DNA of 64,000 bases from Minisyncoccota bacterium (GCA_023229865.1 JALNYL010000007.1:325-64324), one strand, 5' to 3'. Counted from the first letter of the stretch, positions 12,504-44,714 are shown. A program made the numbers and translations. The notes: generated by a model from the letters alone, not told the origin.

Positions 12504-13043
12504 AAAAGAAAAAGCAGAATTAGAAAAAGCCGCACTTGGTGCGGCTTTTTTTGAATTTGGCGTCTATATGAGACGGAATGTGCTAAAAGAACAAGTACAG
12601 AGTTTCGGCGCCGTGTCTGGCGCAAGGAACAAGTGATGACTGTGCGAATACTCCCACAGATTAGATCATAAGCGATCAGCTTTGGAGTTGCGAGTCAACT
12701 AATAAAGGTCTGCATTTATTATACGCGAGTGAAGTTGCTCCTGCAAGACAACCCTGTGGATAACTTTACTCGCGCTTCTTTAGTTGCTTCCTTTTGAGAT
12801 AAAAAATTGCTTTCATCCTACGTTTTTTGGTAAGCCTTCTTTTTCTCACATTGAACCCTCCTGTAAATATAACAATATCCTCCCCTATGGTACGTGCTTG
12901 GAGGCGTAAAGTCAAAAAATTTGAAAAAACGGGGTTTTGTGGTAGTATTTTCCCATCAGTTTTGCCCCAATAGCTGTTTTGGTAGGCCCAGAGAGAGTGG
13001 CTTCCAAAGGAGCGACAGAGGGTAAATTGTTAAAATTTGTAAT

Positions 13044-13116
13044 GCCCCTATAGCTCAGTCGGTAGAGCAGCTCCCTTTTAAGGAGACGGTCGTTGGTTCG
13101 ATTCCAACTGGGGGCA
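13044..13116 (+). tRNA. tRNA-Lys (anticodon TTT)
   Basis: Cloverleaf GCCCCTA...TGGGGGC+A. Anticodon loop CTTTTAA. T-loop GGTTCGATTCC. Confidence 0.85.
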
Positions 13117-13123
13117 CACTCGC

Positions 13124-13157
13124 AAAAAGGCGGCAGGGGATTACCCCGCCGCCTTTT
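13124..13157. terminator. Bidirectional hairpin shared by tRNA-Lys and the convergent element
   Basis: AAAAAGGCGGCAGGGGATTACCCCGCCGCCTTTT. Confidence 0.6.
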
Positions 13158-13165
13158 GCTATGAG

Positions 13166-13267
13166 TGTGCCCCCAGTTGGAATCGAACCGGAGGCCCACC
13201 ATTTTAAAGGAGCGAAGCGACTATTAAAATGGATGGTCTCGACTGGAAGGAGAGGCGATTCCAACTG
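13166..13267 (-). repeat. tRNA-3'-end-mimic element, family A (Lys partner)
   Basis: Its 3' 24 nt are the inverted duplicate of the tRNA-Lys 3' end. The body GGAATCGCCTCTCC...CATCCATTTTAA...TTAAAATGG recurs at 18937-19046. 12-nt terminal inverted repeat CAGTTGGAATCG. Confidence 0.5.
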
Positions 13268-13362
13268 CAAGAAATATACTTAGTGATTTGTGACCACACT
13301 TAAAACGCATGGTCTCGACTGAAAGGAGAGGCGATTCCTATTTTTTCTGCTACAATTATCTT

Positions 13363-13797
13363 ATGAACAAAAAAGAACTTGCCCGCATGAGTTTTTCGAA
13401 GAAAAATTCTGGTGGGTTTACGAGCATTCTATTTCTTCTCGCTATTGTCGCCCTTGTGGGGACTGCGGGGTACATTACATTTACGAAAGATGATTCCGCG
13501 CCAACGGTCTCAGAAAACACACTTGCTCCCGTCGCGACGACAACAGAAGAGATAACCACCCCGATTTTTGTAGATACTCCAACCACCCCAGTCACCCCAG
13601 GTTCTTCAGCTACAAAACTTTTACAAGATTGTCCTGAGACTTGGTTTGATAACCAAATGCCGATGATCATTGATCCTGGACAGCCTCGCCCTGTGACACA
13701 GTATTTTATCTACAAAGGTGAACGACGAGAACTTGCCGAGTTTGATATGAAGTGGGTGAGCGCAAACTGCCCAGTGCAACCATCGGCAGTTTACTAG
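13363..13797 (+). CDS. Hypothetical membrane-anchored protein
   Basis: N-terminal TM helix GFTSILFLLAIVALVGTAGYITF. Confidence 0.35.
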   Translation: MNKKELARMSFSKKNSGGFTSILFLLAIVALVGTAGYITFTKDDSAPTVSENTLAPVATTTEEITTPIFVDTPTTPVTPGSSATKLLQDCPETWFDNQMPMIIDPGQPRPVTQYFIYKGERRELAEFDMKWVSANCPVQPSAVY

Positions 13798-13877
13798 GGT
13801 TTGACCAAAAAGTGTTTTTATGGAAGTATCTCAATTAGAGATACTTTTTGTTTTTTTAACTACTGATGGAGGTCGTC

Positions 13878-14435
13878 ATGCAACTTATTCTCCCGAAGAA
13901 CTTTGTTGAGGTTGGGGCGGATTCGTTTTATGCAAAAACGCCACTGTTTTTCTTGGCTGGGCCAGTGCTTGGTGGTGGGGATTGGCAGAGGAAAATGCTC
14001 CACCTTATCAATCAACGCCAAGAGCATTGCCTCGTCGCAATCCCTTGTCGGTATCCCGAGGAGGATGAGATTCGCAGGCTCCATGTCCCCAATTATGCGC
14101 AAAATGTTTTTGCGCATCAGACGCATTGGGAGCGCTGTTATCTCAGGCACGCCGCTCAAAAGGGATGCATTATCTTTTGGCTCGGAGAGGAAGATAAATT
14201 CAACCCACGAGATGACGGCGAGCCATATGCGCGGGACACCAGGGGTGAGATTGGTGCGTGGGGGGTGCATCTCAAATATGTCCCATCGTTTAGAGTTGTT
14301 GTTGGCGCTGAGCCAGGCTTCCCAGGACTCAGTGTTATCAAGCGCAACCTCGACGACGAGCTTGGTTATGACTTCCCGATATATTCCACCATGGAAGACA
14401 CGGTGAAAGCGGCGGTGCGAAAGTTGTACGAGTAG
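13878..14435 (+). CDS. Rossmann-like protein, possibly a nucleoside 2-deoxyribosyltransferase/LOG-like fold
   Basis: GGAGG RBS. N-terminal LFFLAGPVLGGGDWQ resembles the NDT YLAGP motif. Confidence 0.3.
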   Translation: MQLILPKNFVEVGADSFYAKTPLFFLAGPVLGGGDWQRKMLHLINQRQEHCLVAIPCRYPEEDEIRRLHVPNYAQNVFAHQTHWERCYLRHAAQKGCIIFWLGEEDKFNPRDDGEPYARDTRGEIGAWGVHLKYVPSFRVVVGAEPGFPGLSVIKRNLDDELGYDFPIYSTMEDTVKAAVRKLYE

Positions 14436-14542
14436 TTTGATTCAAAAAGGAGGTCATCGAGACCTCCTTTTCTTTTTGGTATATTTATGTAAGTATAACG
14501 GCAGAAACATCCCTGTTGTTTAATTGTTACAAGGAGACAGAA

Positions 14543-14971
14543 ATGACCGACGATAATCGCTTGATTTACAAAGAGCCTCTCTCGGTAAAAATAGCGCGGT
14601 ATTTAAAGCAGAAGGGGTTCCAGGCCGCATCTATTCATTCTGGTGCAGCCATGGACTCTCTAGCGGGGGCGTCCTGCTTTGGTGTGTTATATCAAGACCC
14701 CGCCATAAAACAGAAGACGTATTTCTGGGGGCTCATCAAGGGGGACACGCCCAGGAGAATTTATCTTGGGGACATTTACATCGACGGGGGAAACCCTCGT
14801 TCGAGCGCGGACCACTGGCGTTTCGAAATGTACGGCAAAGAATATTTCGAGATTGCAAAAGGGTTGGCGAGTGAACTCGTTAAAGAGTTCAATGTCAAAA
14901 TCACGTTTAAGGTTGCTGAAGACTGTGTGAAGCACGAGGGATTCCCCTCCGATTCAGATCCTGGGTGGTGA
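14543..14971 (+). CDS. Hypothetical protein
   Basis: AGGAGA RBS. No motif recognised. Confidence 0.3.
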   Translation: MTDDNRLIYKEPLSVKIARYLKQKGFQAASIHSGAAMDSLAGASCFGVLYQDPAIKQKTYFWGLIKGDTPRRIYLGDIYIDGGNPRSSADHWRFEMYGKEYFEIAKGLASELVKEFNVKITFKVAEDCVKHEGFPSDSDPGW

Positions 14972-15026
14972 CAAATAACACCGAGCTGAAATTGAGCTCG
15001 GTGTTTTCTTTTTGTGCTCTTTAGGA

Positions 15027-15440
15027 TTATAGTGGCAAGTCGACAGCGAACGCTCCTGCGCCAAAGAAGAGGAGAGAGAATGACGCGACCGCGAGGAGAA
15101 TATAAAACTCAGTTGTGTTGTGGGGAAGAGCAGATGGTTTGCGCCACTTGATAAGTGACATGATCATCATGATTGCTCCCATTGCAATAGCTGCCCCTTG
15201 GGTGTAGAAACCGACCACAAGAAGTGCGCCTGCGATTCCCAAAAGAGATGAAATGACAGTCGCGAAAACTTTTGCGGGGCGGAGGCCAAGCTTTTCGTAG
15301 AAATGAATTTGTTCAGACTTCTCGCTCGTTGCTTGCTTGTACCAAAGAGACACAAAAATAAACCCAAGGACAACGCGAAGCAAAAAGACGCCAAGCATTT
15401 GATAATCAAAAAAAGCGGGGAAGAGAGATACTGTTTGCAT
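15027..15440 (-). CDS. DoxX-family membrane protein
   Basis: Four predicted TM helices with DoxX-like spacing. Confidence 0.55.
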   Translation of the reverse strand: MQTVSLFPAFFDYQMLGVFLLRVVLGFIFVSLWYKQATSEKSEQIHFYEKLGLRPAKVFATVISSLLGIAGALLVVGFYTQGAAIAMGAIMMIMSLIKWRKPSALPHNTTEFYILLAVASFSLLFFGAGAFAVDLPL

Positions 15441-15516
15441 TGGTTCATTGTAACAAACTTACCCCTCGTTGCCAAAAGAAAAAGACCGCCAGCGGATGCG
15501 GGCGGTCTGAGATAAA

Positions 15517-15993
15517 TTACTTCTGGTATTTCGAGATATCTATCCCGATATCGAGGGGGCCAAAGGCGAGAGGGAGTAGTTCCTTTATGGATGTGATAAT
15601 GATTTTATCCATCTTCGTTGTCGAAAGAACAAACCCGAAATCTCCGCCAGAGACTTGAGACAGTTCGTAGAGCATTTGGCGGCAACTTCCACAAGGCGCC
15701 GTGACAGTGTTGGTGTCAAAGGTTTCCCCTCGCGCAATGATAGCAATGCCACGAAATTTTCGTAACCCTACTGCGTTTGCAGCTAAAATTGCTGCACGTT
15801 CTGCGCATATCGTTGACCCATATGCTGCATTTTCAACATTTGAGCCAGAGATAAGGGTCCCGTCTTCTGCAATAAGTGTCGCTCCTACATAGAAATGAGA
15901 GTAGGGGTTGTAGGCGTTTTCCATTGCTTCAGCTGCAGCGAGAAGTGCGTTTTGTTGGATTTGAGACAACTCATCAAAAAAGATGTTTCGCAT
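15517..15993 (-). CDS. cdd: Cytidine deaminase
   Basis: Zinc-ligand motifs CAERAAI and PCGSCRQ. Confidence 0.85.
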   Translation of the reverse strand: MRNIFFDELSQIQQNALLAAAEAMENAYNPYSHFYVGATLIAEDGTLISGSNVENAAYGSTICAERAAILAANAVGLRKFRGIAIIARGETFDTNTVTAPCGSCRQMLYELSQVSGGDFGFVLSTTKMDKIIITSIKELLPLAFGPLDIGIDISKYQK

Positions 15994-16121
15994 GGGTTTC
16001 TCCGTTTGTTTGTTAAGAACAGTGACCTTTCACAAAACTACTCTTTTGGGGGAGGGAAGTCAAATAGGGGAATAATTACAAAAGGGCGCGCGCTTCATCC
16101 GAAGCGCGCGCCCTTTTGTAA

Positions 16122-17390
16122 TTATTTCTTGAACCCGAGTTTTATAAGTTCTTCTTTTGCGACGGTCGCGTCATCCCATGGAGTCTTGGTGCCATTGGGT
16201 CCCATGATGTAGGGGTCGGTGCCTTTACCGGTGATAATGACTGCGTCGCCTGTTTTTGCGAAGGAGAGTGCCTTTGCTATGGCAGCACGGCGGTCCATAA
16301 TGATTTCAACTTTCCCCTCCTCGATGCCTTCTCGTATTTCCTCAACAATTTTTTGTGGGTCTTCGTCGTAAGGGTCTTCATCAGTGAGAATGATTTCGTC
16401 GCAGTGTGCACTCGCGATTGCTCCCATTGCGGGGCGCTTCCATGAGTCACGTCCGCCACCCGTGCCACCAAGCACACAAATCTTTCGCGAGTCTTGGAAA
16501 ACCTCGTACACTTTTTCGAGTGAGTCGGGAGTGTGTGCGTAGTCGACGACGACATCAAATTCCTGCCCTTGATTTACGCGCTCGACGCGGCCACGAATGC
16601 CGTGGAATTTTTCGAGGGCACGACGGATGACCTCAGGGGCGATATTCTGTGTGCGCGCAAAGGAGATTCCTGCAAGAATGTTTGAAAGATTGAACGCGCC
16701 CGAAAGGTGTGCCTCGAGAGGTGCCCCCATAAAGGTAAATGTTGTATCGTCTTTTTTGAGCGTGTACGGCTCTGCATCTTTGAGGGAGTAGGTTGTTTTT
16801 GTTTCTGCGTCAACTGCGAGAAATTCTTTTGCATATTCATTGTCAGCGTTTGCAACAATGATGCGTGGGCGCTTTGGGGATTTTGCGAGAGCTTGCGCGA
16901 TGGAAAGTTTTGCCTCTTTGTAATTCTCAAATGAGCCATGTGACTCGATGTGTTCAGGGGAGAGGTTGGTAAAAATGAGCGCATCAAAATCAATGAATTT
17001 GTGACGGAACTGACGTGCCCCTTCAGAAGTCATCTCAATGATTACCCAATCACATTTCGCATTTACAGCGCGACGCAAAAAACGCTGCACAAAAAAACGT
17101 CCCGGGATTGTCATCTTGTAGAGATTGCGCTCCTCATCCTCTCCGATCTTAAAACGAAGGGTCCCTGCGAGTGCGGTGCGGTATCCCGCCTCCTCAAGGA
17201 TAGCACTCACGATCTCTGTGGTTGATGTTTTCCCTTTTGTGCCTGTGATGGCAATGACGCCAATATGGCGAGAGGGGAAGCGGTATATGGTCGCAGCAAG
17301 AAGCGCAAAGAGATAATGATATGCAGGTTGAAATGCGCGGAAGATATTGCGCGGAATTATTTTTTTAATAATGCGGAGAATGTTTTCCAT
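16122..17390 (-). CDS. Mur ligase family protein (MurE/MurT-like)
   Basis: ATP site VIAITGTKGKTSTTE. DYAHTPDSLEKV motif. Confidence 0.65.
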   Translation of the reverse strand: MENILRIIKKIIPRNIFRAFQPAYHYLFALLAATIYRFPSRHIGVIAITGTKGKTSTTEIVSAILEEAGYRTALAGTLRFKIGEDEERNLYKMTIPGRFFVQRFLRRAVNAKCDWVIIEMTSEGARQFRHKFIDFDALIFTNLSPEHIESHGSFENYKEAKLSIAQALAKSPKRPRIIVANADNEYAKEFLAVDAETKTTYSLKDAEPYTLKKDDTTFTFMGAPLEAHLSGAFNLSNILAGISFARTQNIAPEVIRRALEKFHGIRGRVERVNQGQEFDVVVDYAHTPDSLEKVYEVFQDSRKICVLGGTGGGRDSWKRPAMGAIASAHCDEIILTDEDPYDEDPQKIVEEIREGIEEGKVEIIMDRRAAIAKALSFAKTGDAVIITGKGTDPYIMGPNGTKTPWDDATVAKEELIKLGFKK

Positions 17391-17402
17391 AAATAGTTAA
17401 TA

Positions 17403-17981
17403 TTATTTTCCGAGTTGCTTCAGAGCTTCTTTGATACGTGCACTCGTTCCCTTGATATCTGCGGGAACTTGTTTGAGTGCCTCACGTGCGGCACGTTCTG
17501 CGTAGCCGAGTGCGACGAGGCCTTCGATCGCATCACGTTCGCCACTGAGCATTGTCTCTCCGGTAATGCTCTCATCGCCACCGAGTTTTTCGCGGAGCTC
17601 GAGAATGATCTTCTGCGCACTCTTTGAGCCAATCCCTGAAACTTTTGTCAGCGCTCCCGTGTCGCCCATAGCAATCGCCTCCTTGAGGTGTTCGACGGGG
17701 GCGACGTTGAGAATCCCGAGCGCACTCTTGGGGCCGATGCCCGAGACGCTAATAAGGAGCTCAAAGAAATCGAGCTCGCTTTGGTGTTCAAACCCGTACA
17801 AATCGAGGGCGTCTTCGCGGACAACCGTGTAAATCCAAAGGGACGCTTTTTTGTCGGCGTTCTTTTTGAGAGTAATGAGGGTGTCGACCGTGGTGCGGAC
17901 CTTGTATCCCACCCCTGCGGTTTCGATGATGATATATTTGTCTCCCGCAAAGAGAATAGTGCCAGAAAGATGAGCGATCAT
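17403..17981 (-). CDS. ruvA: Holliday junction DNA helicase RuvA
   Basis: MIAHLSGTI... N-terminus. Two HhH motifs. C-terminal domain III. Confidence 0.85.
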   Translation of the reverse strand: MIAHLSGTILFAGDKYIIIETAGVGYKVRTTVDTLITLKKNADKKASLWIYTVVREDALDLYGFEHQSELDFFELLISVSGIGPKSALGILNVAPVEHLKEAIAMGDTGALTKVSGIGSKSAQKIILELREKLGGDESITGETMLSGERDAIEGLVALGYAERAAREALKQVPADIKGTSARIKEALKQLGK

Positions 17982-18263
17982 AGGTACATAATAACGGAAA
18001 GGGGCAGGAAAGGCGAATTCTTGCAGCTATCCCGTTTGTGTGGTAGATTGTTGGAGTCTCAGTGCCGAGTTCAAAAAATTACTCGGTTTGAGCCTATCCC
18101 AAAAGGAACTTTCCTACTTCGCCCCGCAATCGTCGGTGCAAATGAATAAATCTTTTGTCGCCTTATCTCGATAAGGCTTCGCAAGTTTTATTCATTTTCA
18201 CTCGACGATATCGTGGCTCGTGACGGAGGCCCTTTCGGGACAGGCTCTTAATAAATTTAAGTT

Positions 18264-18527
18264 ATGCCAATTATTAAATCAGCAAAACGCAATATTCGTA
18301 GCTCAGCTCGCAAGGCGGTTTATAACACACGCCGCAGCAAGGCTATGAAGGAAGTGGTTAAGGAAGTGCGCACCCTCGTTGCTTCAAAGGACAAGAAGTC
18401 CGCAGAGGCTCTCCTTTCAAAAGCCTACAAGGCAATCGACAAGGCAGCAAAGGGAAACACTATCAAGAAAAACACTGCATCTCGCAAGAAGTCACGCCTC
18501 GCAAAGGCAATCAAGAAAATCGCGTAA
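18264..18527 (+). CDS. rpsT: 30S ribosomal protein S20
   Basis: MPIIKSAKRNIRSSARKAVYN... Followed by the terminator at 18528-18563. Confidence 0.9.
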   Translation: MPIIKSAKRNIRSSARKAVYNTRRSKAMKEVVKEVRTLVASKDKKSAEALLSKAYKAIDKAAKGNTIKKNTASRKKSRLAKAIKKIA

Positions 18528-18581
18528 AGCACAAAAAACCGACCTTTTGAAAAGGTCGGTTTTTTGTTATTATATATTGAT

Positions 18582-18896
18582 ATGAAAAAGATTAATCCCG
18601 TAGAAGCTCAAGTGCTTGTTGGAAAAGGAGAGGTTGTCGTTCTTGATGTTCGCACTCTAGCAGAATTTGCTGAAGGACACATCGCGGGCGCAAAAAATAT
18701 TGATATTTACAGTGATGAATTTTCGGAAGCTGTGCGCACGCTTCCTGCTGACGCGACGTATGTAGTGAACTGTCGCAGTGGCGCGCGTTCATCCCAGGCA
18801 TGTTCATTTATGGAGGAGCTTGGTTTTAGAAATGTAATGAATCTCGAAGGGGGAATCATGGCGTGGATGAGTGCTGGGTTGGCAACGGAGAAGTAA
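18582..18896 (+). CDS. Rhodanese-domain protein
   Basis: Active-site CRSGARS loop. Confidence 0.75.
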   Translation: MKKINPVEAQVLVGKGEVVVLDVRTLAEFAEGHIAGAKNIDIYSDEFSEAVRTLPADATYVVNCRSGARSSQACSFMEELGFRNVMNLEGGIMAWMSAGLATEK

Positions 18897-18936
18897 GCGG
18901 GTCTCCATGTGGTCCTAGTCCTGCTGAAAGCAAAGC

Positions 18937-19046
18937 AGTTTGTTGATTCGGAATCGCCTCTCCTTTCAGTCGAGACCATCCATTTTAATAGTCGCTGCGC
19001 TCCTTTAAAATGGTGGGCCTTCGGTTCGATTCCTACCGAGAGCACA
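18937..19046 (+). repeat. tRNA-3'-end-mimic element, family A (Arg-GCG partner)
   Basis: Same body as 13166-13267 in the opposite orientation. The last 24 nt GGTTCGATTCCTACCGAGAGCACA are identical to the 3' end of the convergent tRNA. Confidence 0.5.
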
Positions 19047-19051
19047 AAAGC

Positions 19052-19076
19052 AAAAACACCCTTCCGGGTGTTTTTT
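19052..19076. terminator. Bidirectional hairpin
   Basis: AAAAACACCCTTCCGGGTGTTTTTT. Confidence 0.6.
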
Positions 19077-19080
19077 CCTG

Positions 19081-19152
19081 TGCTCTCGGTAGGAATCGAA
19101 CCTACATCGTGGGTACCGCAAACCCATATCCTATCCATTGAACGACGAGAGC
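19081..19152 (-). tRNA. tRNA-Arg (anticodon GCG as read from the 7-nt loop TTGCGGT)
   Basis: Acceptor GCTCTCG/CGAGAGC. T-arm GTAGGTTCGATTCCTAC. Perfect 5-bp anticodon stem TGGGT/ACCCA. Confidence 0.6.
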
Positions 19153-19295
19153 AATTTGTTCTATTTGATTAACTTTGCCCCCGTGCCTTTTGCGAGGTCT
19201 TATTCAGACTAAGCATAACAACGACGAGAGCGTTTTTCGAACCCACACACTCTACCATAAAACTCAGAAAAAGCAAAAAATCAGATGACCCCAGC

Positions 19296-20597: not shown

Positions 20598-21140
20598 TTA
20601 GCGATGCTTGTTGTCGATATGATGAATCGTGTCGACGGTCAACTTGCCACCATCCAAACAAAGAAGCGCAACGTTGTTGAAAGGGAACACGAACTCAGGA
20701 ACTTGTTTTTTGTTTACGTATTCCCATATCGCCCAAAACTTTTCATCAACACCTTTTGCGACGGTGATGTGAAAATGTTTGCGTGACTCATGTGCTTTCC
20801 ATGAGGTTTCAGGAATTTGTTTGCGAATAGCATTACGCAGCCCTTCGACCGCGCGCTCTGTTTCTCGCGGCAGACTTACATCGAGGAAGATAGTGTCAGT
20901 CTCGAAGTGTCCAAAACCGTGGACAACAAAGGGGTGCGGGTGATGCGCTCGCGCAAATTTTTCAAGTTCTATTTTTGTCAGCATTAAGTCGGCTTTTTCA
21001 AACGGAGACTTAAGGGTGACGTGTGTGGGGAAAAATTCTGTGTTCACACTGAGGCTGAAGCGTTTCGCTATGTCTTGAACGAGTGCGTAATGATACCTTT
21101 TGACTGTTCCTTCTGGTAAATGAACTATGGAATAGCGCAT
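20598..21140 (-). CDS. 2H phosphoesterase superfamily protein (LigT / 2'-5' RNA ligase-like), copy 1
   Basis: Two H-x-T/S-x motifs: PTHVTLK and HFHITVA. AAGGAGG RBS. Confidence 0.6.
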   Translation of the reverse strand: MRYSIVHLPEGTVKRYHYALVQDIAKRFSLSVNTEFFPTHVTLKSPFEKADLMLTKIELEKFARAHHPHPFVVHGFGHFETDTIFLDVSLPRETERAVEGLRNAIRKQIPETSWKAHESRKHFHITVAKGVDEKFWAIWEYVNKKQVPEFVFPFNNVALLCLDGGKLTVDTIHHIDNKHR

Positions 21141-21250: not shown

Positions 21251-21796
21251 CTACAAAGGAGTTGCGTATTGGCTATCGACAACCCACGCGTCGTTTTCTT
21301 TGCGAAGTAATACGATGTTGTCGAGTGAACGATGGAACGCGGGAGTCTCTTTTTGTTTGAGATATTCCCAGACCTTGTCGAACTTCGGCTCGATATCTTT
21401 TTTCGCGAGCGTGATGTGAAGATGCATGATCGGCTCATGGCTACCCCAAGTGAGGAAGGGGATTGCCTTGAGTTTTTTGATCAGCCGGTCATGCATATAT
21501 TCGGCTTCGCGCGAGTGAACCACGTCGAGCGTGATGACGCGTCGTCCCAAGTGCCCAAACCCACAAATGGTGTACCCTGGGGCCACAGATGTTTGTGTGG
21601 TTTCTTGGAGTGCTTGTCGAACAGCAGGAATCTCCTCGTCGTCAGCCTCGAAAGGTGCCTTGAGGGTGATGTGTGTGGGGAAGTACCCGCTGCTCATCTT
21701 GAGGTCAAACTTTTCCGCGAGCTCACGCACGAGCCCTTCGTGATATTTTGCAACAGGGGCTGCAAGCAGGTGGGCAATGAAATAACGATTACGCAT
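21251..21796 (-). CDS. 2H phosphoesterase superfamily protein, copy 2 (tandem paralog)
   Basis: PTHITLK and HLHITLA. Similar promoter and terminator to copy 1. Confidence 0.6.
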   Translation of the reverse strand: MRNRYFIAHLLAAPVAKYHEGLVRELAEKFDLKMSSGYFPTHITLKAPFEADDEEIPAVRQALQETTQTSVAPGYTICGFGHLGRRVITLDVVHSREAEYMHDRLIKKLKAIPFLTWGSHEPIMHLHITLAKKDIEPKFDKVWEYLKQKETPAFHRSLDNIVLLRKENDAWVVDSQYATPL

Positions 21797-21879
21797 GATA
21801 TTTTCCTCTCTGTATGTACAAAAGCTACTCACAATCTATGCTGATGAGTAGCTTTTGTCAAACGGTATAAAGTCATCGG

Positions 21880-27671: not shown

Positions 27672-27839
27672 TGTATTTGGGTGAGATGCGGTCACGAGTT
27701 ACTAAGTCTGCTTAGGTGATTACACCTTGCGCGGACTAAGTACTCTCGACCCCGAGTCCAAGACACAAATCTGCTGATTCGTCGGCGTCTGAAATGCTTA
27801 CGCATTTCTCTGCCTCCGTCCTTCGAATCTCACCCTGCA
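27672..27839 (+). repeat. tRNA-3'-end-mimic element, family B (Ser partner), containing the 64-nt imperfect palindrome at 27690-27753
   Basis: Palindrome GGTCACGAGTTACTAAGTCTGCTTAGGTGATTACACCTTGCGCGGACTAAGTACTCTCGACCCC. The 3' end CTTCGAATCTCACCCTGCA mirrors the tRNA-Ser 3' end. Flanking inverted repeat GGGTGAGAT/ATCTCACCC. Confidence 0.5.
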
Positions 27840-27850
27840 TATAAACGCCA

Positions 27851-32269: not shown

Positions 32270-32464
32270 CTTGCGTGCCTTGGTGCCCCCGCGTGGAATC
32301 GAACGAGAAGGGGGTCGGGGAAACATCTGTTTTCCCGTGGAGGAAGGATTGGGAAAACCGTGGGTTTCCCAGGAGTGAGATAGCGAAGCGTCCACGCGGC
32401 GGGGTCGAGAGTACTTAGTCCGCGCAAGATGTAATCATCTGAGCAGACTTAGTAACTCGTGACC
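32270..32464 (-). repeat. tRNA-3'-end-mimic element, family B (Arg-TCT partner)
   Basis: The 3' end (window 32281-32305) is the inverted copy of the tRNA-Arg 3' end including CCA. The 5' end is the 64-nt palindrome at 32401-32464. Confidence 0.5.
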
Positions 32465-32570
32465 ACAAGGTACCTCTGCTATCTTCCAATTCGTCGCCAC
32501 TGATTTTTTCGTACCTCAAAAATCAGGCTTCGCGGCGACTCGGTTCGAACCCCTCATCGCCACACAAACA
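32401..32570 (+). repeat. tRNA-3'-end-mimic element (Val partner), sharing the palindrome at 32401-32464 back-to-back with the previous element
   Basis: The 3' end GGTTCGAACCCCTCATCGCCACA matches the tRNA-Val 3' end with one mismatch and one deleted nt. Confidence 0.4.
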
Positions 32571-35284: not shown

Positions 35285-35324
35285 CAAAATTAAAAGCCCC
35301 GACTCATGCGAGTCGGGGCTTTTA

Positions 35325-35485
35325 ATTTTGTGCGCAGGAAGCAAGACGCTGGTGCGTCTTGCGTGAGGACTTGAAAGCCGGAACCATACCGAGTGCAACG
35401 AGGTAGGTGAGGCGGGGTAGCGGATACTTAGTCCGCGGAAGGTGTAATCACCTGAGCAGACTTAGTAATCCGTGACCAAGTCCTC
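35325..35485 (-). repeat. tRNA-3'-end-mimic element, family B (Leu partner)
   Basis: Inverted tRNA-Leu 3' end at 35329-35379 carrying an inserted small hairpin. 64-nt palindrome at 35414-35477. Flanking inverted repeat GAGGACTTG/CAAGTCCTC. Confidence 0.5.
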
Positions 35486-40077: not shown

Positions 40078-40202
40078 TTTTGAATTGTTGAGATGACCGA
40101 GTTCTATGCTTAATGCAGAAATTTGGTAGCTCGGAATCTTTGGGGGTTGTCCACATTTTCCTTTAGTAAAATTACGATAAAAGTGTTAGGCTTTTGTTAT
40201 CT

Positions 40203-41033
40203 ATGTCTAAAAATGAGACAATAAAATTTTCAGGTTATCATTTGATAATTAAAGGGAAGAAAACCTTTGATTTGTCATGTTTCTCTTTGGTAGAGAGTGA
40301 GCGGACAGAACGCCTTGTTATTTCAAGCGGAGAGCAAAAAGAAACTCTTCAAGTAACTAAACACAAGAAAGTAACACACTCTGAGCGTTTTTTGACGCTG
40401 TATTTTAATTCAGGGGAAAAATATCCATATTCACCGACAGTTATCGACGGTGAACTGCAAGAAACTGATAATCCGAGGAATCCCGAGCAGATCGAACTTG
40501 ATGAACAACTTTTTGTTTTGTTTGATACCGTAACGCAGAGAATGTGGATTTCAAATCAACGAAAGAAAAATTTTATAGTAGAGTGGATAGCCAAAAAAAC
40601 AAAATTTGAAATCTCTGTTAAATCCATCCTTGACGAAGAGACATTTTTGGAAAAAATTAAATCAGTTGAGGAGGTGTCTTTTTGTGTTGTGCCGAATTTA
40701 TTTAATACTTCTGGGCAAAATACATTATCAGGGCATTTAGCCCAGGATATTTATGGGTTTGGTGCAAGCAAGGCACGCATAGAACTCTCATATAAAGATA
40801 TTTCAATTAATGATAAAATAAAGACAAGGATAAGAGAGATGCTTGGTCGTAAATCAGATTTTCAAGATGTTAGTGTTGTGGGTAGAAGTGATGAGGGGTT
40901 AGATACAATTTTTAATTTGGAGGAAGTAATAAGTAGGATTCACGTAGAAGTTGTTGCGGATAATAAATCTAAACTACTTGATCCAGTGGAAGTATTCGAT
41001 TCTTTAATTAGTAATATAAATAAATATGAGTAA
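40203..41033 (+). CDS. Hypothetical protein A of the low-GC island (an alternative TTG start lies at 40194)
   Basis: Long ORF in an AT-rich segment. No recognisable motif. Confidence 0.4.
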   Translation: MSKNETIKFSGYHLIIKGKKTFDLSCFSLVESERTERLVISSGEQKETLQVTKHKKVTHSERFLTLYFNSGEKYPYSPTVIDGELQETDNPRNPEQIELDEQLFVLFDTVTQRMWISNQRKKNFIVEWIAKKTKFEISVKSILDEETFLEKIKSVEEVSFCVVPNLFNTSGQNTLSGHLAQDIYGFGASKARIELSYKDISINDKIKTRIREMLGRKSDFQDVSVVGRSDEGLDTIFNLEEVISRIHVEVVADNKSKLLDPVEVFDSLISNINKYE

Positions 41034-41487
41034 AAAATATTTCACGGCCACTGTGTTGTTCCTAGTATCTCTACTTGTTCAAATTAAATTCTTTTCTAAT
41101 ATTCAATTTAGTCTAAGTACAATAAGCGATATAGTTACGTTTTTGTCTATCTTGTTTGGCTTTTATGTAACTAGTCTTGCGATTTTTGTAACCTCCAAGT
41201 ATGTTTCAAGTCTGTATGAGATCGTGGACCGCAATAATAAGGGGGTTACATTGCTTGATACACTGACGAACAACTACAAATTTGGATTGATCCTCACTCT
41301 CTTGTCATTAATGTATTTTATTGGAGTTCAGTTTTTTATACCTTTACAACAAAGCACACTGTCTCTTGGCGACGGAATATTTTACCCCCTAATAGGATTT
41401 CTTGTTCTAGATTTTGTTTATTGTTTTGCAATGCTTAGTGATTTAATTAAAATTATTATTCAAGAAGGCAAAAGTCGCGCGGTCTAA
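41026..41487 (+). CDS. Hypothetical 4-TM membrane protein B of the island
   Basis: Start overlaps the stop of A (ATGAGTAA). Four hydrophobic helices. Confidence 0.45.
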   Translation: MSKKYFTATVLFLVSLLVQIKFFSNIQFSLSTISDIVTFLSILFGFYVTSLAIFVTSKYVSSLYEIVDRNNKGVTLLDTLTNNYKFGLILTLLSLMYFIGVQFFIPLQQSTLSLGDGIFYPLIGFLVLDFVYCFAMLSDLIKIIIQEGKSRAV

Positions 41488-41522
41488 ATTGTTATAATTA
41501 TTCGTTTGAATAAACAAAGATT

Positions 41523-42128
41523 ATGAATGAAGAAATTTTAGCAAGAACGGAGTCTCTTTATTTAATCAATTCAAACAAGGAAAAGTGCGCTGAATTGATT
41601 AGGGAATCTGACTTATCAGCAGAGGATATGATTGACATATTTATTAGTTTGCATATCGTTCTTGAGGTTGGGCTAAATGCATTTTTTAGAAACTTGTCTT
41701 TGTTGTCTATCAAAAAAGACGTTGACACTTTTGAGATTATAAGAAATGTTGACTCGGTCAATTTTATAGATAAAACAATTATGTTTATTTATAATTCGAA
41801 ATTTGATTTTTTGAGCGAAGAAGATCTGCATAGGGCTACTGCCTATCATAGTATTATTGGCCACTTAAAACATTTTTCAGCGATGCGCAATCGGCTACTC
41901 CATGGACATTCAATAAGCACTATATTTGATGGTGAGAGAAACAGACACTCGGGATTGAAAGAAGATATAAATTTGGAAAATCTTAAAAGACAAATTTTAA
42001 AATTCAGTTTTATTTTTGAGGGAATGAAATTTTATTTAGATAAATTAGATTCGCCTCTTACTGAATCTGGGAAAGAAAGTTTTAAGGCCGAATATTTAAG
42101 TGACGAATTTTTGCCAATATTGAGATAA
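41523..42128 (+). CDS. Hypothetical protein C with an Rx4H HEPN-like motif (candidate RNase)
   Basis: KHFSAMRNRLLHGHS carries an R-x4-H motif in an otherwise alpha-helical protein. Confidence 0.35.
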   Translation: MNEEILARTESLYLINSNKEKCAELIRESDLSAEDMIDIFISLHIVLEVGLNAFFRNLSLLSIKKDVDTFEIIRNVDSVNFIDKTIMFIYNSKFDFLSEEDLHRATAYHSIIGHLKHFSAMRNRLLHGHSISTIFDGERNRHSGLKEDINLENLKRQILKFSFIFEGMKFYLDKLDSPLTESGKESFKAEYLSDEFLPILR

Positions 42129-42301
42129 CTTATCCTTTTGCCCCTTAAATCGGCCATACCTCCACACTTACTTTTTAAAACCTGGTTATGCAATGGTGAT
42201 TCATCTTTCAATCCACCTCATTGACTCTCCTCAAACTTTAATATAGAACTAACGTAGTTGGATTTGGTCTTTTAATCAATTTACAGAAACGGAGGGTTCA
42301 A

Positions 42302-43327
42302 ATGGAAATTACTCTGCAAGACAGATTCCGCGGGGCGCTTGTTGGCGTCCTTGCGGGCGATGCGCTCGGGGCGCCGTATGAGCTGGGGAAGGCGGCAGAC
42401 ATTGACGCTGACTTCGCGAAGCGCGGCGGCCTCACGGCGTTTGGTTACCAAAATCCCTTTTACGGGAAGACGGAAGACATCAAAGAGTTTCCCGCAGGGC
42501 GACCGACGGATGATTCCGATCACACTGCAGCACTCGCGAAAAGCCTCATCGAAAGCAATGGTCTCGACGAAAAAGATTTGTTCTATCGTCTGCGCAGTAT
42601 CGTCGTGAATGGCTGGAGTCCTTTGTGGGGAGGGAAGGCAGTAGGCGCCGGCAGAACGACGCGCAAAATGCTCGCCCCCGAAACCTACGAAGAGTCGTAT
42701 GCGATTCCAAGCAAGGGAGCATTCCCGAGCAACGGAAGTCTCATGCGTTCGGCACCGATGGCACTCTATTTTGCGGCGACACGCCCTACGGGTGGTATCG
42801 ACCGCGATATGGTAGCAAGGATGTCGCGTGTAACACACCGTCATCCGCTCGCGGTGCGGTGCTGCGTTGCGTATGCCTCCATCCTTTACGAACTCCTCCT
42901 GGGGTATCATCGTGACGGTGCGAGTCAGAGAGCGATTCAGCTCGGGTATGACTGGGATCATGAGAGTGGAGTTCTCAATCTTCACCGCGAAGAGATTCCC
43001 TGGCAAGTCAGTCTCGCAGACATGCTTGCTGATCCTACAGTTCACCCGCGTGACCCCTGGGGAAAGCCGGGCATCGGTGATGTACTCCTCACGCTCCATG
43101 TTGCACTCTGGGCGCTCTACACTACTTCGAGTTTCCGCGAGGGGATTACGAAAGTCGTTGCGCTTGGTGGCGACACGGATACGTACGCTGCAGTGGCCGG
43201 GGGACTCCTCGGTGCATACTATGGCGAACAAGGTATCCCGCCCGAATGGAGGAACGTTCTCCTTGGGCGACAAGTGATGGAAAACCTCGCTGATGAATTC
43301 TGTATCTGGGCAAACCAAAGTGCGTAA
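42302..43327 (+). CDS. ADP-ribosylglycohydrolase (DraG/ARH family)
   Basis: GALVGVLAGDALGAPYE and DDSDHT motifs. C-terminal GGDTDTYAAVAGGLLGA. Confidence 0.75.
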   Translation: MEITLQDRFRGALVGVLAGDALGAPYELGKAADIDADFAKRGGLTAFGYQNPFYGKTEDIKEFPAGRPTDDSDHTAALAKSLIESNGLDEKDLFYRLRSIVVNGWSPLWGGKAVGAGRTTRKMLAPETYEESYAIPSKGAFPSNGSLMRSAPMALYFAATRPTGGIDRDMVARMSRVTHRHPLAVRCCVAYASILYELLLGYHRDGASQRAIQLGYDWDHESGVLNLHREEIPWQVSLADMLADPTVHPRDPWGKPGIGDVLLTLHVALWALYTTSSFREGITKVVALGGDTDTYAAVAGGLLGAYYGEQGIPPEWRNVLLGRQVMENLADEFCIWANQSA

Positions 43328-43499
43328 CAAACTGTACTTTTCAAACCGGCGAGCAATCGCCGGTTTTTGTTTTGAGTCCACAATCGAACCCTTGATTTTT
43401 CTACAATTTTGTGTTATAAGCAAATCAGGTAGCTGTTTGTAAAACTCGTCGCCCGACATTTTGTCAGGCGACAAACTATTAAAATAGAAAGGAATAACC

Positions 43500-44714
43500 A
43501 TGCAGGAAACCACACTGACAAAGTCTGGGGTGAACCGCAGGCTCTGGAATGCAATACGAATCCTCATGTCCTCGTTGGGGGAAAATGGTATGTACGCAGG
43601 CTCTGGCCCGCGCTACCGCAACCAATGCTGGACACGCGATGTATCCCTCGCACTTTTCCCCGCGCTCTACTCGATGTGTTCGCGGGGGATGAGTATGCCG
43701 GGGGCACCGACGGACAAGGCTTACCTTTTGGGGGTTCGCGAGAAACATCTCGCGCAACTCATGGAACGCCAAGGCCCGACCGGCGCCATCCCGATTCTTT
43801 ATGCGGACAACTTCGAGCAACTTCTGTTGTCGAAGCTGTCCAAAGCAAAGTGGGACGGCAAAACGCTCGATGTGAATGGTTCGTTTGTGGCCCGTCGTAT
43901 TCTCGACGGCTACTACGCGTCCCAGGGGCGGGGGGCGGAGTTCAGCGATTTCCCCAAGGATCGTGAGTGTGGCCTCTATCGCCTCACTCCGGGTACGACA
44001 GATAGCGAGCTCATGTTCGCGTATGCTGTCTACTCGCAAAAAGAATCCACGGAAATTCATCGCAACCACGCAGACCGCGCGATCAAGCATCTCGAAGATC
44101 GTTACGTTTGGAACGGCCTGCATAATGGCGCCGACTGGCGTGACACGATGGAAGTCTTCTTTCGCGACAAGCCGCTCCTCACCAACAACGCACTGCTCTA
44201 CGCCGTGTACAAGTTGTCGGGTAATGTGGAGAAGGCGGGCGCACTGAAGGCAGAAATCGAACGTGTTCTCTGGAACGGCGAGACCTATCTCGACTATCCT
44301 GAAGCAACGCGCTTCGATCCACTCGGTGGCGCACTCGGTGTTCTTCATGGGCTGATTCCTGAGGAACGCTATGCGTCGGTGCTGGCTGGCTTCAAGTCTG
44401 TCGACACGCCGCAGGGTGTGACGATCGAGTGCAAGCACAACCCGCACCAGTCAGGCGAAGCAGAAGTCATCGAACGTACGGGCGGCATTGTTGTGTGGCC
44501 ATTTGTTGTCGGCTTCACCATTCTTGCGGCTCTCGAAATGGGCGAACATGAATTTGCTCTCGAGCAGTTCAAAAAGTTCCACAACCTCGATGGCTTTGCA
44601 GAATGGTATGACCCCGCAGACGGAAGTAAGTGGGGCGAGCACGAGCAGGGCTGGAGCGCCGCACTCTATGTGCGTGTCGTCGAAGCCCTCACACAGCGTG
44701 GTCTCCTGCAATAA
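43500..44714 (+). CDS. Glycoside hydrolase of the (alpha/alpha)6-barrel type (GDE_C / GH100 / GH63-like)
   Basis: Helical repeats with conserved W/D/E acidic residues. Weak family assignment. Confidence 0.35.
   Translation: MQETTLTKSGVNRRLWNAIRILMSSLGENGMYAGSGPRYRNQCWTRDVSLALFPALYSMCSRGMSMPGAPTDKAYLLGVREKHLAQLMERQGPTGAIPILYADNFEQLLLSKLSKAKWDGKTLDVNGSFVARRILDGYYASQGRGAEFSDFPKDRECGLYRLTPGTTDSELMFAYAVYSQKESTEIHRNHADRAIKHLEDRYVWNGLHNGADWRDTMEVFFRDKPLLTNNALLYAVYKLSGNVEKAGALKAEIERVLWNGETYLDYPEATRFDPLGGALGVLHGLIPEERYASVLAGFKSVDTPQGVTIECKHNPHQSGEAEVIERTGGIVVWPFVVGFTILAALEMGEHEFALEQFKKFHNLDGFAEWYDPADGSKWGEHEQGWSAALYVRVVEALTQRGLLQ

Follow-up and report, generated by a model that had tools for sequence, protein, structure and literature searches.

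Hairpin repeats behind tRNA genes of a Parcubacteria genome, with ends copied from the neighbouring tRNA

Family A copies at the tRNA-Lys and tRNA-Arg genes

We analysed a 64,000-nt stretch of DNA (JALNYL010000007.1:325-64324 of the Minisyncoccota assembly GCA_023229865.1; hereafter the window, to whose full length coordinates refer unless a related locus is named) that contains a short repeat, here called Family A, behind two of its tRNA genes. tRNA-Lys(UUU) is followed at 45 nt by copy 1 and tRNA-Arg(GCG), on the other strand, at 33 nt by copy 2 (39-54 nt for the full copies as delimited in Table 1), and in both cases a terminator composed of an A-tract, a GC-hairpin and a T-tract stands between the tRNA and the element (Table 1). 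The repeat is non-coding, forms a hairpin and is confined to tRNA 3' flanks, where it runs in the sense of the tRNA and has ends that duplicate the tail of its host tRNA. The host organism belongs to the Parcubacteria (Paceibacterota), its closest relatives being Candidatus Yonathbacteria metagenome-assembled genomes (MAGs), with a Mur ligase 83-86% identical. The genes between the two copies are housekeeping genes (RuvA, S20, Mur ligase, cytidine deaminase) in the same order as in relatives, and a 5.9-kb genomic island or invertible segment was rejected for this reason.

A first-pass annotation of the window had reported the two copies in opposite orientation together with a partial third one. 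The inverted repeat was borne out by a repeat search of the window and is longer than had been noted, with arms of 97 nt (13166-13262 and 18950-19046) that are 93% complementary. The 73-nt body differs at 3 positions between copies 1 and 2, the identity being 96% over the 79 nt compared, and the internal hairpin CCAUCCAUUUUAA/UUAAAAUGGUGG was predicted by folding in both copies. A 28-nt core pattern has three exact matches in the window, against 0 expected from 100 shuffles. The third copy does exist, as a 39-nt sequence 92-95% identical to both full copies (nhmmer E=3e-9); its start had been misplaced (13300, not 13297) and so had its distance from copy 1 (37 nt, not 30). The annotation had asked whether it is a footprint of excision or slippage, and it is not an obvious one. 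L002, L084 and L096 contain the same short form, consisting of TCTCGACTGNAAGGAGAGGCG and the pseudo-T-loop and preceded by a unit whose end is GTGACCACAC (L-numbers such as L001 or L089 denote related or metagenome loci). The third copy is therefore the shared right-end module of a mosaic array.

Overlooked in the annotation, the outer 24-27 nt of either arm repeat the 3' end of the tRNA gene next to it, exactly and in inverted orientation; we call this copy the anti-tail. At both tRNAs it covers the T-loop, the 3' strands of the T-stem and of the acceptor stem, the discriminator and the first bases of the trailer (5 nt for tRNA-Lys). Within this tail part of the arms the two copies differ at 4 positions, which are the positions where tRNA-Lys and tRNA-Arg differ. 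The ends of the arms thus match the neighbouring tRNA exactly and differ as the tRNAs differ, and therefore the "tRNA-like" signal is explained as tRNA-gene DNA copied into a palindrome with the terminator at its centre. Only the 7 real tRNAs of the window were called by ARAGORN and the Rfam tRNA model, with nothing at 13166-13262 or 18950-19046 even at E<=10, and on the strand used in the annotation the T-stem keeps 2-3 of its 5 pairs while the acceptor 5' strand is absent. The designation "tRNA-mimic" accordingly holds insofar as the family is genuine, non-coding, present in several copies and supplied with tRNA-derived sequence, and fails for a free-standing mimic, because neither program calls a tRNA and the tail changes with its neighbour. 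The "tRNA mimicry" is copied tRNA-gene DNA and not an evolved mimic.

The peptide that had been reported as shared by reading frames over the copies was found in the open reading frame (ORF) 18909-19172. This ORF and ORF 12912-13202 had been regarded as six-frame artefacts, and this was upheld because each of them overlaps a real tRNA gene. A protein-coding gene was rejected on the same overlap and also because the changes between copies are paired substitutions in stems and insertions or deletions in the hairpin. The annotation had allowed that the copies might turn out to be fragments of a known gene; there was no phage or plasmid match, and no Rfam family was called for either copy.

Table 1. 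Positions of the Family A sites and of the modules behind other tRNA genes in the window
Feature	Position	Strand	Basis
tRNA-Lys(UUU), host of copy 1	13044..13117	+	ARAGORN; Rfam tRNA 70.3 bits
Bidirectional terminator-like hairpin (A-tract, GGCGGCAGGGG/CCCCGCCGCC, T-tract), on which the tRNA-tail palindrome is centred	13124..13157	.	sequence reading; not called by simple terminator scan
Anti-tail of copy 1, exact 27-nt inverted copy of tRNA-Lys 13095-13121	13163..13189	+	longest exact inverted match
Family A copy 1, sense to tRNA-Lys	13172..13269	+	covariance model R1 115 bits; fold; alignments
Fragment like the 3' end of a "type B" module (ATACTTAGTGATTTGTGACCACAC)	13271..13299	+	sequence; same terminus in L002, L006, L084, L096
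Short third copy, right-end module only (half stem, TCTCGACTGAAAGGAGAGGCG, pseudo-T-loop GATTCC), no tail	13300..13338	+	repeat search, core pattern, nhmmer
Family A copy 2, sense to tRNA-Arg(GCG)	18943..19040	-	covariance model R1 117.9 bits; fold
Anti-tail of copy 2, matching the tRNA-Arg 3' end 19079-19102 exactly in inverted orientation (24 nt)	19023..19046	-	exact inverted match
Bidirectional terminator hairpin AAAAACACCC-GGAA-GGGTGTTTTT between tRNA-Arg and copy 2	19052..19075	.	terminator scan
tRNA-Arg(GCG), host of copy 2	19080..19152	-	ARAGORN; Rfam
Module behind tRNA-Ser(UGA): 15-nt anti-tail 27822-27836; type B long hairpin 27690-27751	27690..27850	-	
Module behind tRNA-Arg(UCU): anti-tail including encoded CCA and trailer, different body; type B hairpin 32403-32464	32276..32475	+	
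Short module behind tRNA-Val(UAC): anti-tail and hairpin	32476..32565	-	
Module behind tRNA-Leu(GAG): anti-tail split by GC hairpin; type B hairpin 35416-35477	35318..35480	+	

Anatomy, fold and strand

Read in the sense of the tRNA, a Family A unit consists of a short trailer or a terminator hairpin, the anti-tail, GGAWTCGAACC, G-N-AGG, a variable hairpin whose loop is often of the GCGAAGC type, TCTCGACTG-N-AAGGAGAGGCG, the pseudo-T-loop AWTCC and a direct copy of the tRNA tail of 0-20 nt, after which come the older trailer of the tRNA and its terminator. Two blocks of this sequence are invariant, CGAACCG-N-AGG and TCTCGACTG-N-AAGGAGAGGCG. Copy 1 has the parts in this order, with a closing helix of 12 bp (CAGTTGGAATCG/CGATTCCAACTG), the loop GCGAAGC in the variable hairpin, the pseudo-T-loop CGATTCC and a direct tail of 5 nt (AACTG). 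The closing helix of copy 2 is only 7 bp long (GGAATCG/CGATTCC), and neither copy 2 nor the short copy has a direct tail. These terminal inverted repeats derive from the host tRNA and reach up to 19 bp in L083. The sequence that the annotation took for the 5' end of the element, GGAATCGCC, becomes GGCGATTCC on the tRNA-sense strand and is the pseudo-T-loop, which in L008, L089, L083, L090 and L103 runs on into a direct copy of the tRNA tail and then a second terminator.

The element had been drawn on the opposite strand, and the fold contradicts this assignment. In each of the 15 distinct full copies the tRNA-sense strand gives the more stable fold, with a mean of -5.2 kcal/mol relative to the other strand, and the cells that are not Watson-Crick pairs comprise 26 G.T and 2 A.C, or 9 and 2 once a conserved G.U pair, found in 17 of 18 sequences, has been removed. 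For the covariation we used 20 distinct sequences aligned to a covariance model, a procedure that favours structure, and the margin is nonetheless large: 97.9% of cells are paired as compared with 82.9% in shuffles, and control structures with slid partners were only 36-48% paired. Compensatory change has altered both sides of 16 of the 27 pairs, and the covariation score of 0.338 (0.115 when shuffled) was reached by none of 500 shuffles. The invariant 3' block can also form a hairpin by itself, UCUC-GA-CU-GNA-AG-GA-GAG, containing a GNA triloop and tandem G.A pairs, and its sole variable position is the middle base of this triloop. Its retention in short forms that do not have its 5' partner speaks for an independent module.

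GC skew is positive in every 4-kb bin (GC content 47.5%), and the whole window is one replichore with the plus strand as the leading strand. Modules are found on both strands under this uniform skew, and therefore their orientation follows the tRNA and not replication. A palindromic element derived from IS200/IS605 (PATE), oriented by replication strand, was rejected on these grounds, the modules being always in the sense of the tRNA. A possible promoter inside the hairpin, TTTAAA-16-TAAAAT, was also rejected, as it is not kept in copies that have other hairpin sequences.

The only resemblance to a described RNA motif that deserves mention here is to GA-cis (RF02987), which gave sense-strand matches of 14.9 and 13.5 bits where the gathering score is 34.7 (E 0.4-3.5). 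The alignments extend over 13189-13266 (+) and 18946-19020 (-) and take in both the GCGAAGC loop and the hairpin with the tandem GA on the 3' side; at the gathering score there was no GA-cis match in nine related loci. A similarity below the gathering score may serve as a lead only.

Several other identities were tried and set aside. ARAGORN found no transfer-messenger RNA (tmRNA), the only Rfam match of this type being beta_tmRNA at 6.8 bits; a group I intron in a tRNA gene has no Rfam match, and the elements lie outside complete tRNA genes. A guide RNA of TnpB/IscB type or an IS110 bridge RNA is excluded by the lack of an associated ORF and by arms that both copy the same target and pair together. 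The anti-tail of copy 1 matches the gene trailer (CAC) and not a mature CCA end, which is not what would be expected of a retroviral-type primer-binding site, and import of the tail with an encoded CCA was rejected because encoded CCA and the presence of a module are not associated (Fisher p=0.49). Nor is Family A an inverted duplicate of the 3' half of tRNA-Lys as far as the anticodon loop, since identity falls to about half beyond the 27 exact bases.

tRNA association, occupancy and homogenisation

Family A accounts for two of the modules in the window. Six of the seven tRNAs carry one, tRNA-His being the exception, and behind tRNA-Ser, tRNA-Arg(UCU), tRNA-Val and tRNA-Leu an inverted copy of the tRNA's own T-arm and tail is found 50-90 nt downstream with bodies that are different from Family A. 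The module of tRNA-Arg(UCU) also has a degenerate direct tail, TCCACGCGGCGGGG. In the module of tRNA-Leu the GC hairpin that divides the anti-tail sits exactly at the junction of acceptor and T-stem, and a hairpin at this junction is seen behind Arg, Lys, Leu and Ser tRNAs. A second body, type B, is a conserved long hairpin, GGTCGCGAGYACTTA…TTAGTRAYTYGTGACC. All 17 distinct type B copies with upstream sequence are located behind a same-strand tRNA, and all 19 distinct copies are more stable in the sense orientation, with 33 G.U against 11. The best reading of these observations is that Family A represents one body type in a modular class of non-coding hairpin elements of about 55-120 nt that occupy only the immediate 3' flanks of tRNA genes in Parcubacteria, on the strand of the tRNA.

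To the window we added 80 related Parcubacteria loci, and scored an inverted copy wherever 12 nt of a tRNA's own T-loop and T-stem recurred with <=1 mismatch within 400 nt. Such a copy was present downstream of 30 of 200 tRNAs and upstream of 0 of 200. A direct copy of 13 nt of the tail followed 24 of 216 tRNAs and preceded 1, and 43 of 206 had a copy of either kind. Across the 80 related loci roughly 15-20% of tRNAs carry a module. The annotation had asked for further copies of Family A, and these are present in relatives and in metagenomes, where a scan with the conserved core gave 25 loci. A covariance model built from five Family A copies returned 25 strong matches; each of the 20 matches with upstream sequence is placed 21-265 nt (mostly 21-61) behind a tRNA on the same strand. 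The host tRNAs comprise nine species (Asn, Arg-GCG, Arg-UCU, Lys, Leu-UAA, Tyr, Val, Ser-GCU and Ser-CGA). Units placed as little as 17-22 nt past the tRNA, with no terminator in between, are also seen (L083, L103).

A separate observation concerns two loci, L065 (8054-8127) and L073 (7127-7200), in which ARAGORN calls a tRNA with anticodon UUA at the place where relatives have tRNA-Lys(UUU), also followed by a module. This anticodon would read the stop codon UAA.

The same tRNA gene is filled in some close relatives and empty in others. The tRNA-Arg-GCG gene is empty in L001 and L003 and is occupied in L002, L008, L089 and the window, and in L089 the insertion is flanked by direct repeats of about 20 nt. 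A comparison of L003 with L006 reveals an insertion of 182 nt bounded by a 13-nt repeat of the tail, with the older trailer AACGTAAAGAAAAAC conserved after the second tail. Direct repeats of the tRNA tail in relatives measure 13-22 nt, and the window copies have none or 5 nt. Units have also accumulated in tandem in L052, L076 and L030.

Two copies of one genome resemble each other more than they resemble those at corresponding tRNAs of a relative. Identity is 96% for the window pair and 80% for the pair of L008, located at the same tRNAs, whereas it is 64-76% between L008 and the window. Family A units behind tRNA-Leu (L086, L097) and tRNA-Asn (L093) are 92-95% identical to the window copies, and their flanks have nothing in common by megablast. 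The arms usually match the host tRNA and evolve in concert with it: they mirror lineage-specific tRNA substitutions (CCAAC/TGGGGGC in the window versus CCTAC/TGGGCGC in relatives, and similarly L083 versus L090), and therefore homogenisation in place does occur. Direct tails that do not correspond to the host are found in L094 (1407-1506, another tRNA-Ser) and in L098 (589-689, of Arg-GCG/CCG type), which indicates that arms can also travel with the unit.

At the tRNA-Lys site two differences from relatives were recorded. Between the tRNA-Lys array and DoxX (13363-14971) the window has three plus-strand ORFs with no Pfam match, which are missing from this position in L002-L008, and in L002-L008 the tRNA-Lys module is reversed relative to the flanking genes.

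Mechanism and alternative explanations

The explanation we prefer, to which we assign a probability of roughly one half, is that Family A is selfish, non-autonomous DNA that enters tRNA genes between the T-loop and the 3' end, duplicates the tail and is homogenised with the tRNA. Entry, by a Campbell-like or a duplicative route, would produce the tail duplication, the chemistry of insertion and the enzyme being conjectural. The arms would then be kept the same as the neighbouring tRNA by gene conversion acting locally or by correction of the quasi-palindrome across the terminator hairpin. Since it is on the tRNA-sense strand that the structure of the units is selected, transcription probably reaches them by reading through the tRNA terminator. 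A unit that moved could leave circular or hairpin junctions in which …GGAGAGGCG is joined to an AWTCC-tail.

Several results weigh against this explanation. The 50 ORFs scanned, out of the 70 of at least 110 aa in the window, include no recombinase, no transposase and no reverse transcriptase; there were no long-range or island-sized repeats of tRNA tails in 1.4 Mb of loci, and no viral, phage or plasmid matches and no matches of the pattern in viral contigs. Both window copies are without a complete direct tail, and duplicative insertion is seen only in relatives. Neither an excised form nor a polymorphism in a population nor a transcript was observed. Finally, the invariant blocks, which persist across distant metagenomes, the conserved G.U pair and the selection on the sense strand suit a functional RNA at least equally well. 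Being selfish DNA and being a functional RNA are not exclusive of each other.

Comparison with known systems gives partial likenesses. Family A shares with repeats of the type of miniature inverted-repeat transposable elements (MITEs) and of REP/BIME (E. coli REP/BIME, Neisseria Correia, Rickettsia RPE) the properties of being short, non-coding, multi-copy, hairpin-forming and intergenic, as well as mosaic arrays, truncated copies and homogenisation within genomes. It is distinguished from these repeats by its confinement to the tRNA 3' flank in sense orientation only and by terminal repeats that are the 3' end of the host tRNA and vary with the host. Terminal inverted repeats are present as in MITEs; the 50 window ORFs contain no cognate transposase or recombinase, however, and a short target-site duplication of fixed length was not apparent. 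With the folded recombination sites of integrons (attC) and of the CTX phage (attP) the comparison is speculative: both are bulged imperfect palindromes that preserve structure over sequence and fold in a strand-specific manner, and in a circularised unit the hairpin of tail, terminator and anti-tail might reproduce the double-stranded target. Neither an integron integrase nor an Xer-type partner was identified, and the orientation of Family A tracks the tRNA.

A wider proposal, which we make tentatively and regard as possible rather than probable, is that these modules could be a previously unrecognised parasite or companion of tRNA genes in the candidate phyla radiation, the large assemblage of uncultured bacteria to which Parcubacteria belong, either as a mobile cassette or as an RNA released by punctuation. 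Elements of this kind were not met with in literature searches, nor is there an Rfam family for them. As a mobile cassette, the folded palindrome of tail, terminator and anti-tail would mimic the double-stranded tRNA 3' end and serve as the attachment site, and the specificity would be re-templated from whichever tRNA the cassette lands behind. As a companion, the modules would be structured RNAs freed from tRNA transcripts by tRNA-like punctuation.

The strongest alternative to selfish DNA, one that we take seriously even though we rate it as rather unlikely, is a functional structured RNA co-transcribed with the tRNA and either excised by RNase P and RNase Z or involved in the control of read-through. 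Anti-tail and direct tail would pair to a helix of 12-19 bp that copies the acceptor stem and T-stem, and in other module types the hairpin would sit where the D and anticodon domains leave this helix; alternatively the anti-tail might act on read-through precursors, for instance as a fail-safe duplex for RNase III. Such an RNA is supported by the sense orientation of 20 of 20 matches, by folding and a G.U bias that favour the sense strand and by an orientation that tracks the tRNA instead of the replication strand. The conserved G.U pair, the invariant blocks, the hairpin with tandem G.A and GNA triloop, the units at 17-22 nt from the tRNA with no terminator, the GC hairpin placed precisely at the acceptor/T-stem junction and the weak GA-cis match of both window copies in sense point in the same direction. 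On the other hand, most units sit after a strong terminator hairpin, the window copies and many others have no complete direct tail and hence no acceptor-like helix, presence varies at the same tRNA among close relatives, and homogenisation within genomes and mosaic truncated arrays are characteristic of repeats and not of genes. The nearest known systems for such an RNA are t-elements, structures of mascRNA type and tRNA punctuation. As in these, a helix resembling acceptor and T-stem could close the RNA of a unit, one that RNase P and RNase Z might in principle cleave, and some module types have the junction hairpin. It differs from t-elements in that the potential helix is an exact copy of the adjacent tRNA tail and is missing from many units, being partial in copy 1 and absent in copy 2.

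It is improbable that the units are scars or miniature derivatives, in the manner of cis-mobilizable elements (CIMEs), of phages or integrative elements, with the direct tail as the attL/attR block and the bodies as remnants of attP arms. There are real likenesses to tRNA sites of phages and integrative elements and to CIMEs, namely the direct duplication from T-loop to 3' end, the older trailer displaced downstream after it and the tandem accretion of units. The interval from the T-loop to the 3' end is reportedly the classical sublocation for integration in tRNA genes. The direct repeat of the tRNA 3' end around the insertion that marks CIMEs is present in relatives (24 of 216 versus 1; L089) and absent for the window copies, and classical att sites were rejected in the window because its tail copies are inverted, not direct. 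Family A units are moreover gene-free and only 55-250 nt long, with conserved structure and compensatory change, and the additional inverted tail copy and the strict sense-strand structure are foreign to att sites. The lack of an integrase in the scanned ORFs, of island-sized tail repeats in the 1.4 Mb and of viral, phage or plasmid matches also argues against scars.

Very little credence can be given to the model of the first-pass annotation, an independent antisense RNA gene mimicking a tRNA, with a 3' tail like a T-arm and acceptor, that converges with the tRNA on a shared terminator. It is true that the 3' end, immediately ahead of a bidirectional terminator, holds the T-loop consensus GGTTCGATTCC together with the 3' strand of the acceptor, and the pyrimidine-rich CCUCUCCUU would occupy an unpaired bulge on that strand. 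Against this, no cloverleaf is called and the 5' strands of T-stem and acceptor are absent, the tail varies with the neighbour and includes trailer bases, as expected of a DNA palindrome and not of a mimic, and the antisense strand folds worse in 15 of 15 copies, the conserved G.U becoming an A.C mismatch. An equally remote prospect is a pure mutational by-product, in which template switching extends terminator hairpins into palindromes with no element and no selection: the palindromes extend without a break from T-loop to terminator loop, across the trailer, and the extent of the arms differs between copies, but this cannot account for invariant blocks, compensatory hairpin changes, non-cognate tails or bodies 92-95% identical behind unrelated tRNAs of different organisms, and it is largely refuted as a complete explanation, while template switching may still maintain the match of the arms.

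If this account is correct, a substantial share of the tRNA genes in a major uncultured lineage would carry modules built on their own 3' end, and in either the parasite or the companion version this would be a new use of the universal T-loop/acceptor module. For annotation, six-frame ORFs and "tRNA-like" signals in tRNA flanks would be module artefacts, and for the assembly of MAGs these flanks would hold long palindromes and near-identical repeats beside every other tRNA. Concerted evolution with an essential gene would be taking place in very small genomes that are thought to be poor in mobile DNA. The modules may also influence termination and 3' processing of tRNA precursors, and the invariant blocks together with the target-matched arms could offer a handle for finding a protein partner.

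Some neighbouring features of the window were recorded in passing. Five consecutive ORFs (153-428 aa) at 40194-44714 have no Pfam match. A perfect palindrome of 26 nt (AATAATTACAAAAGGGCGCGCGCTTC / GAAGCGCGCGCCCTTTTGTAATTATT) is located at 16071-16126, between the cytidine deaminase and Mur ligase genes. Tandem paralogs of LigT / 2H-phosphoesterase (2'-5' RNA ligase; Pfam E=1.6e-17 and 2.8e-15) are encoded at 20598-21140 (-) and 21251-21832 (-), 1.4 kb from tRNA-Arg-GCG.

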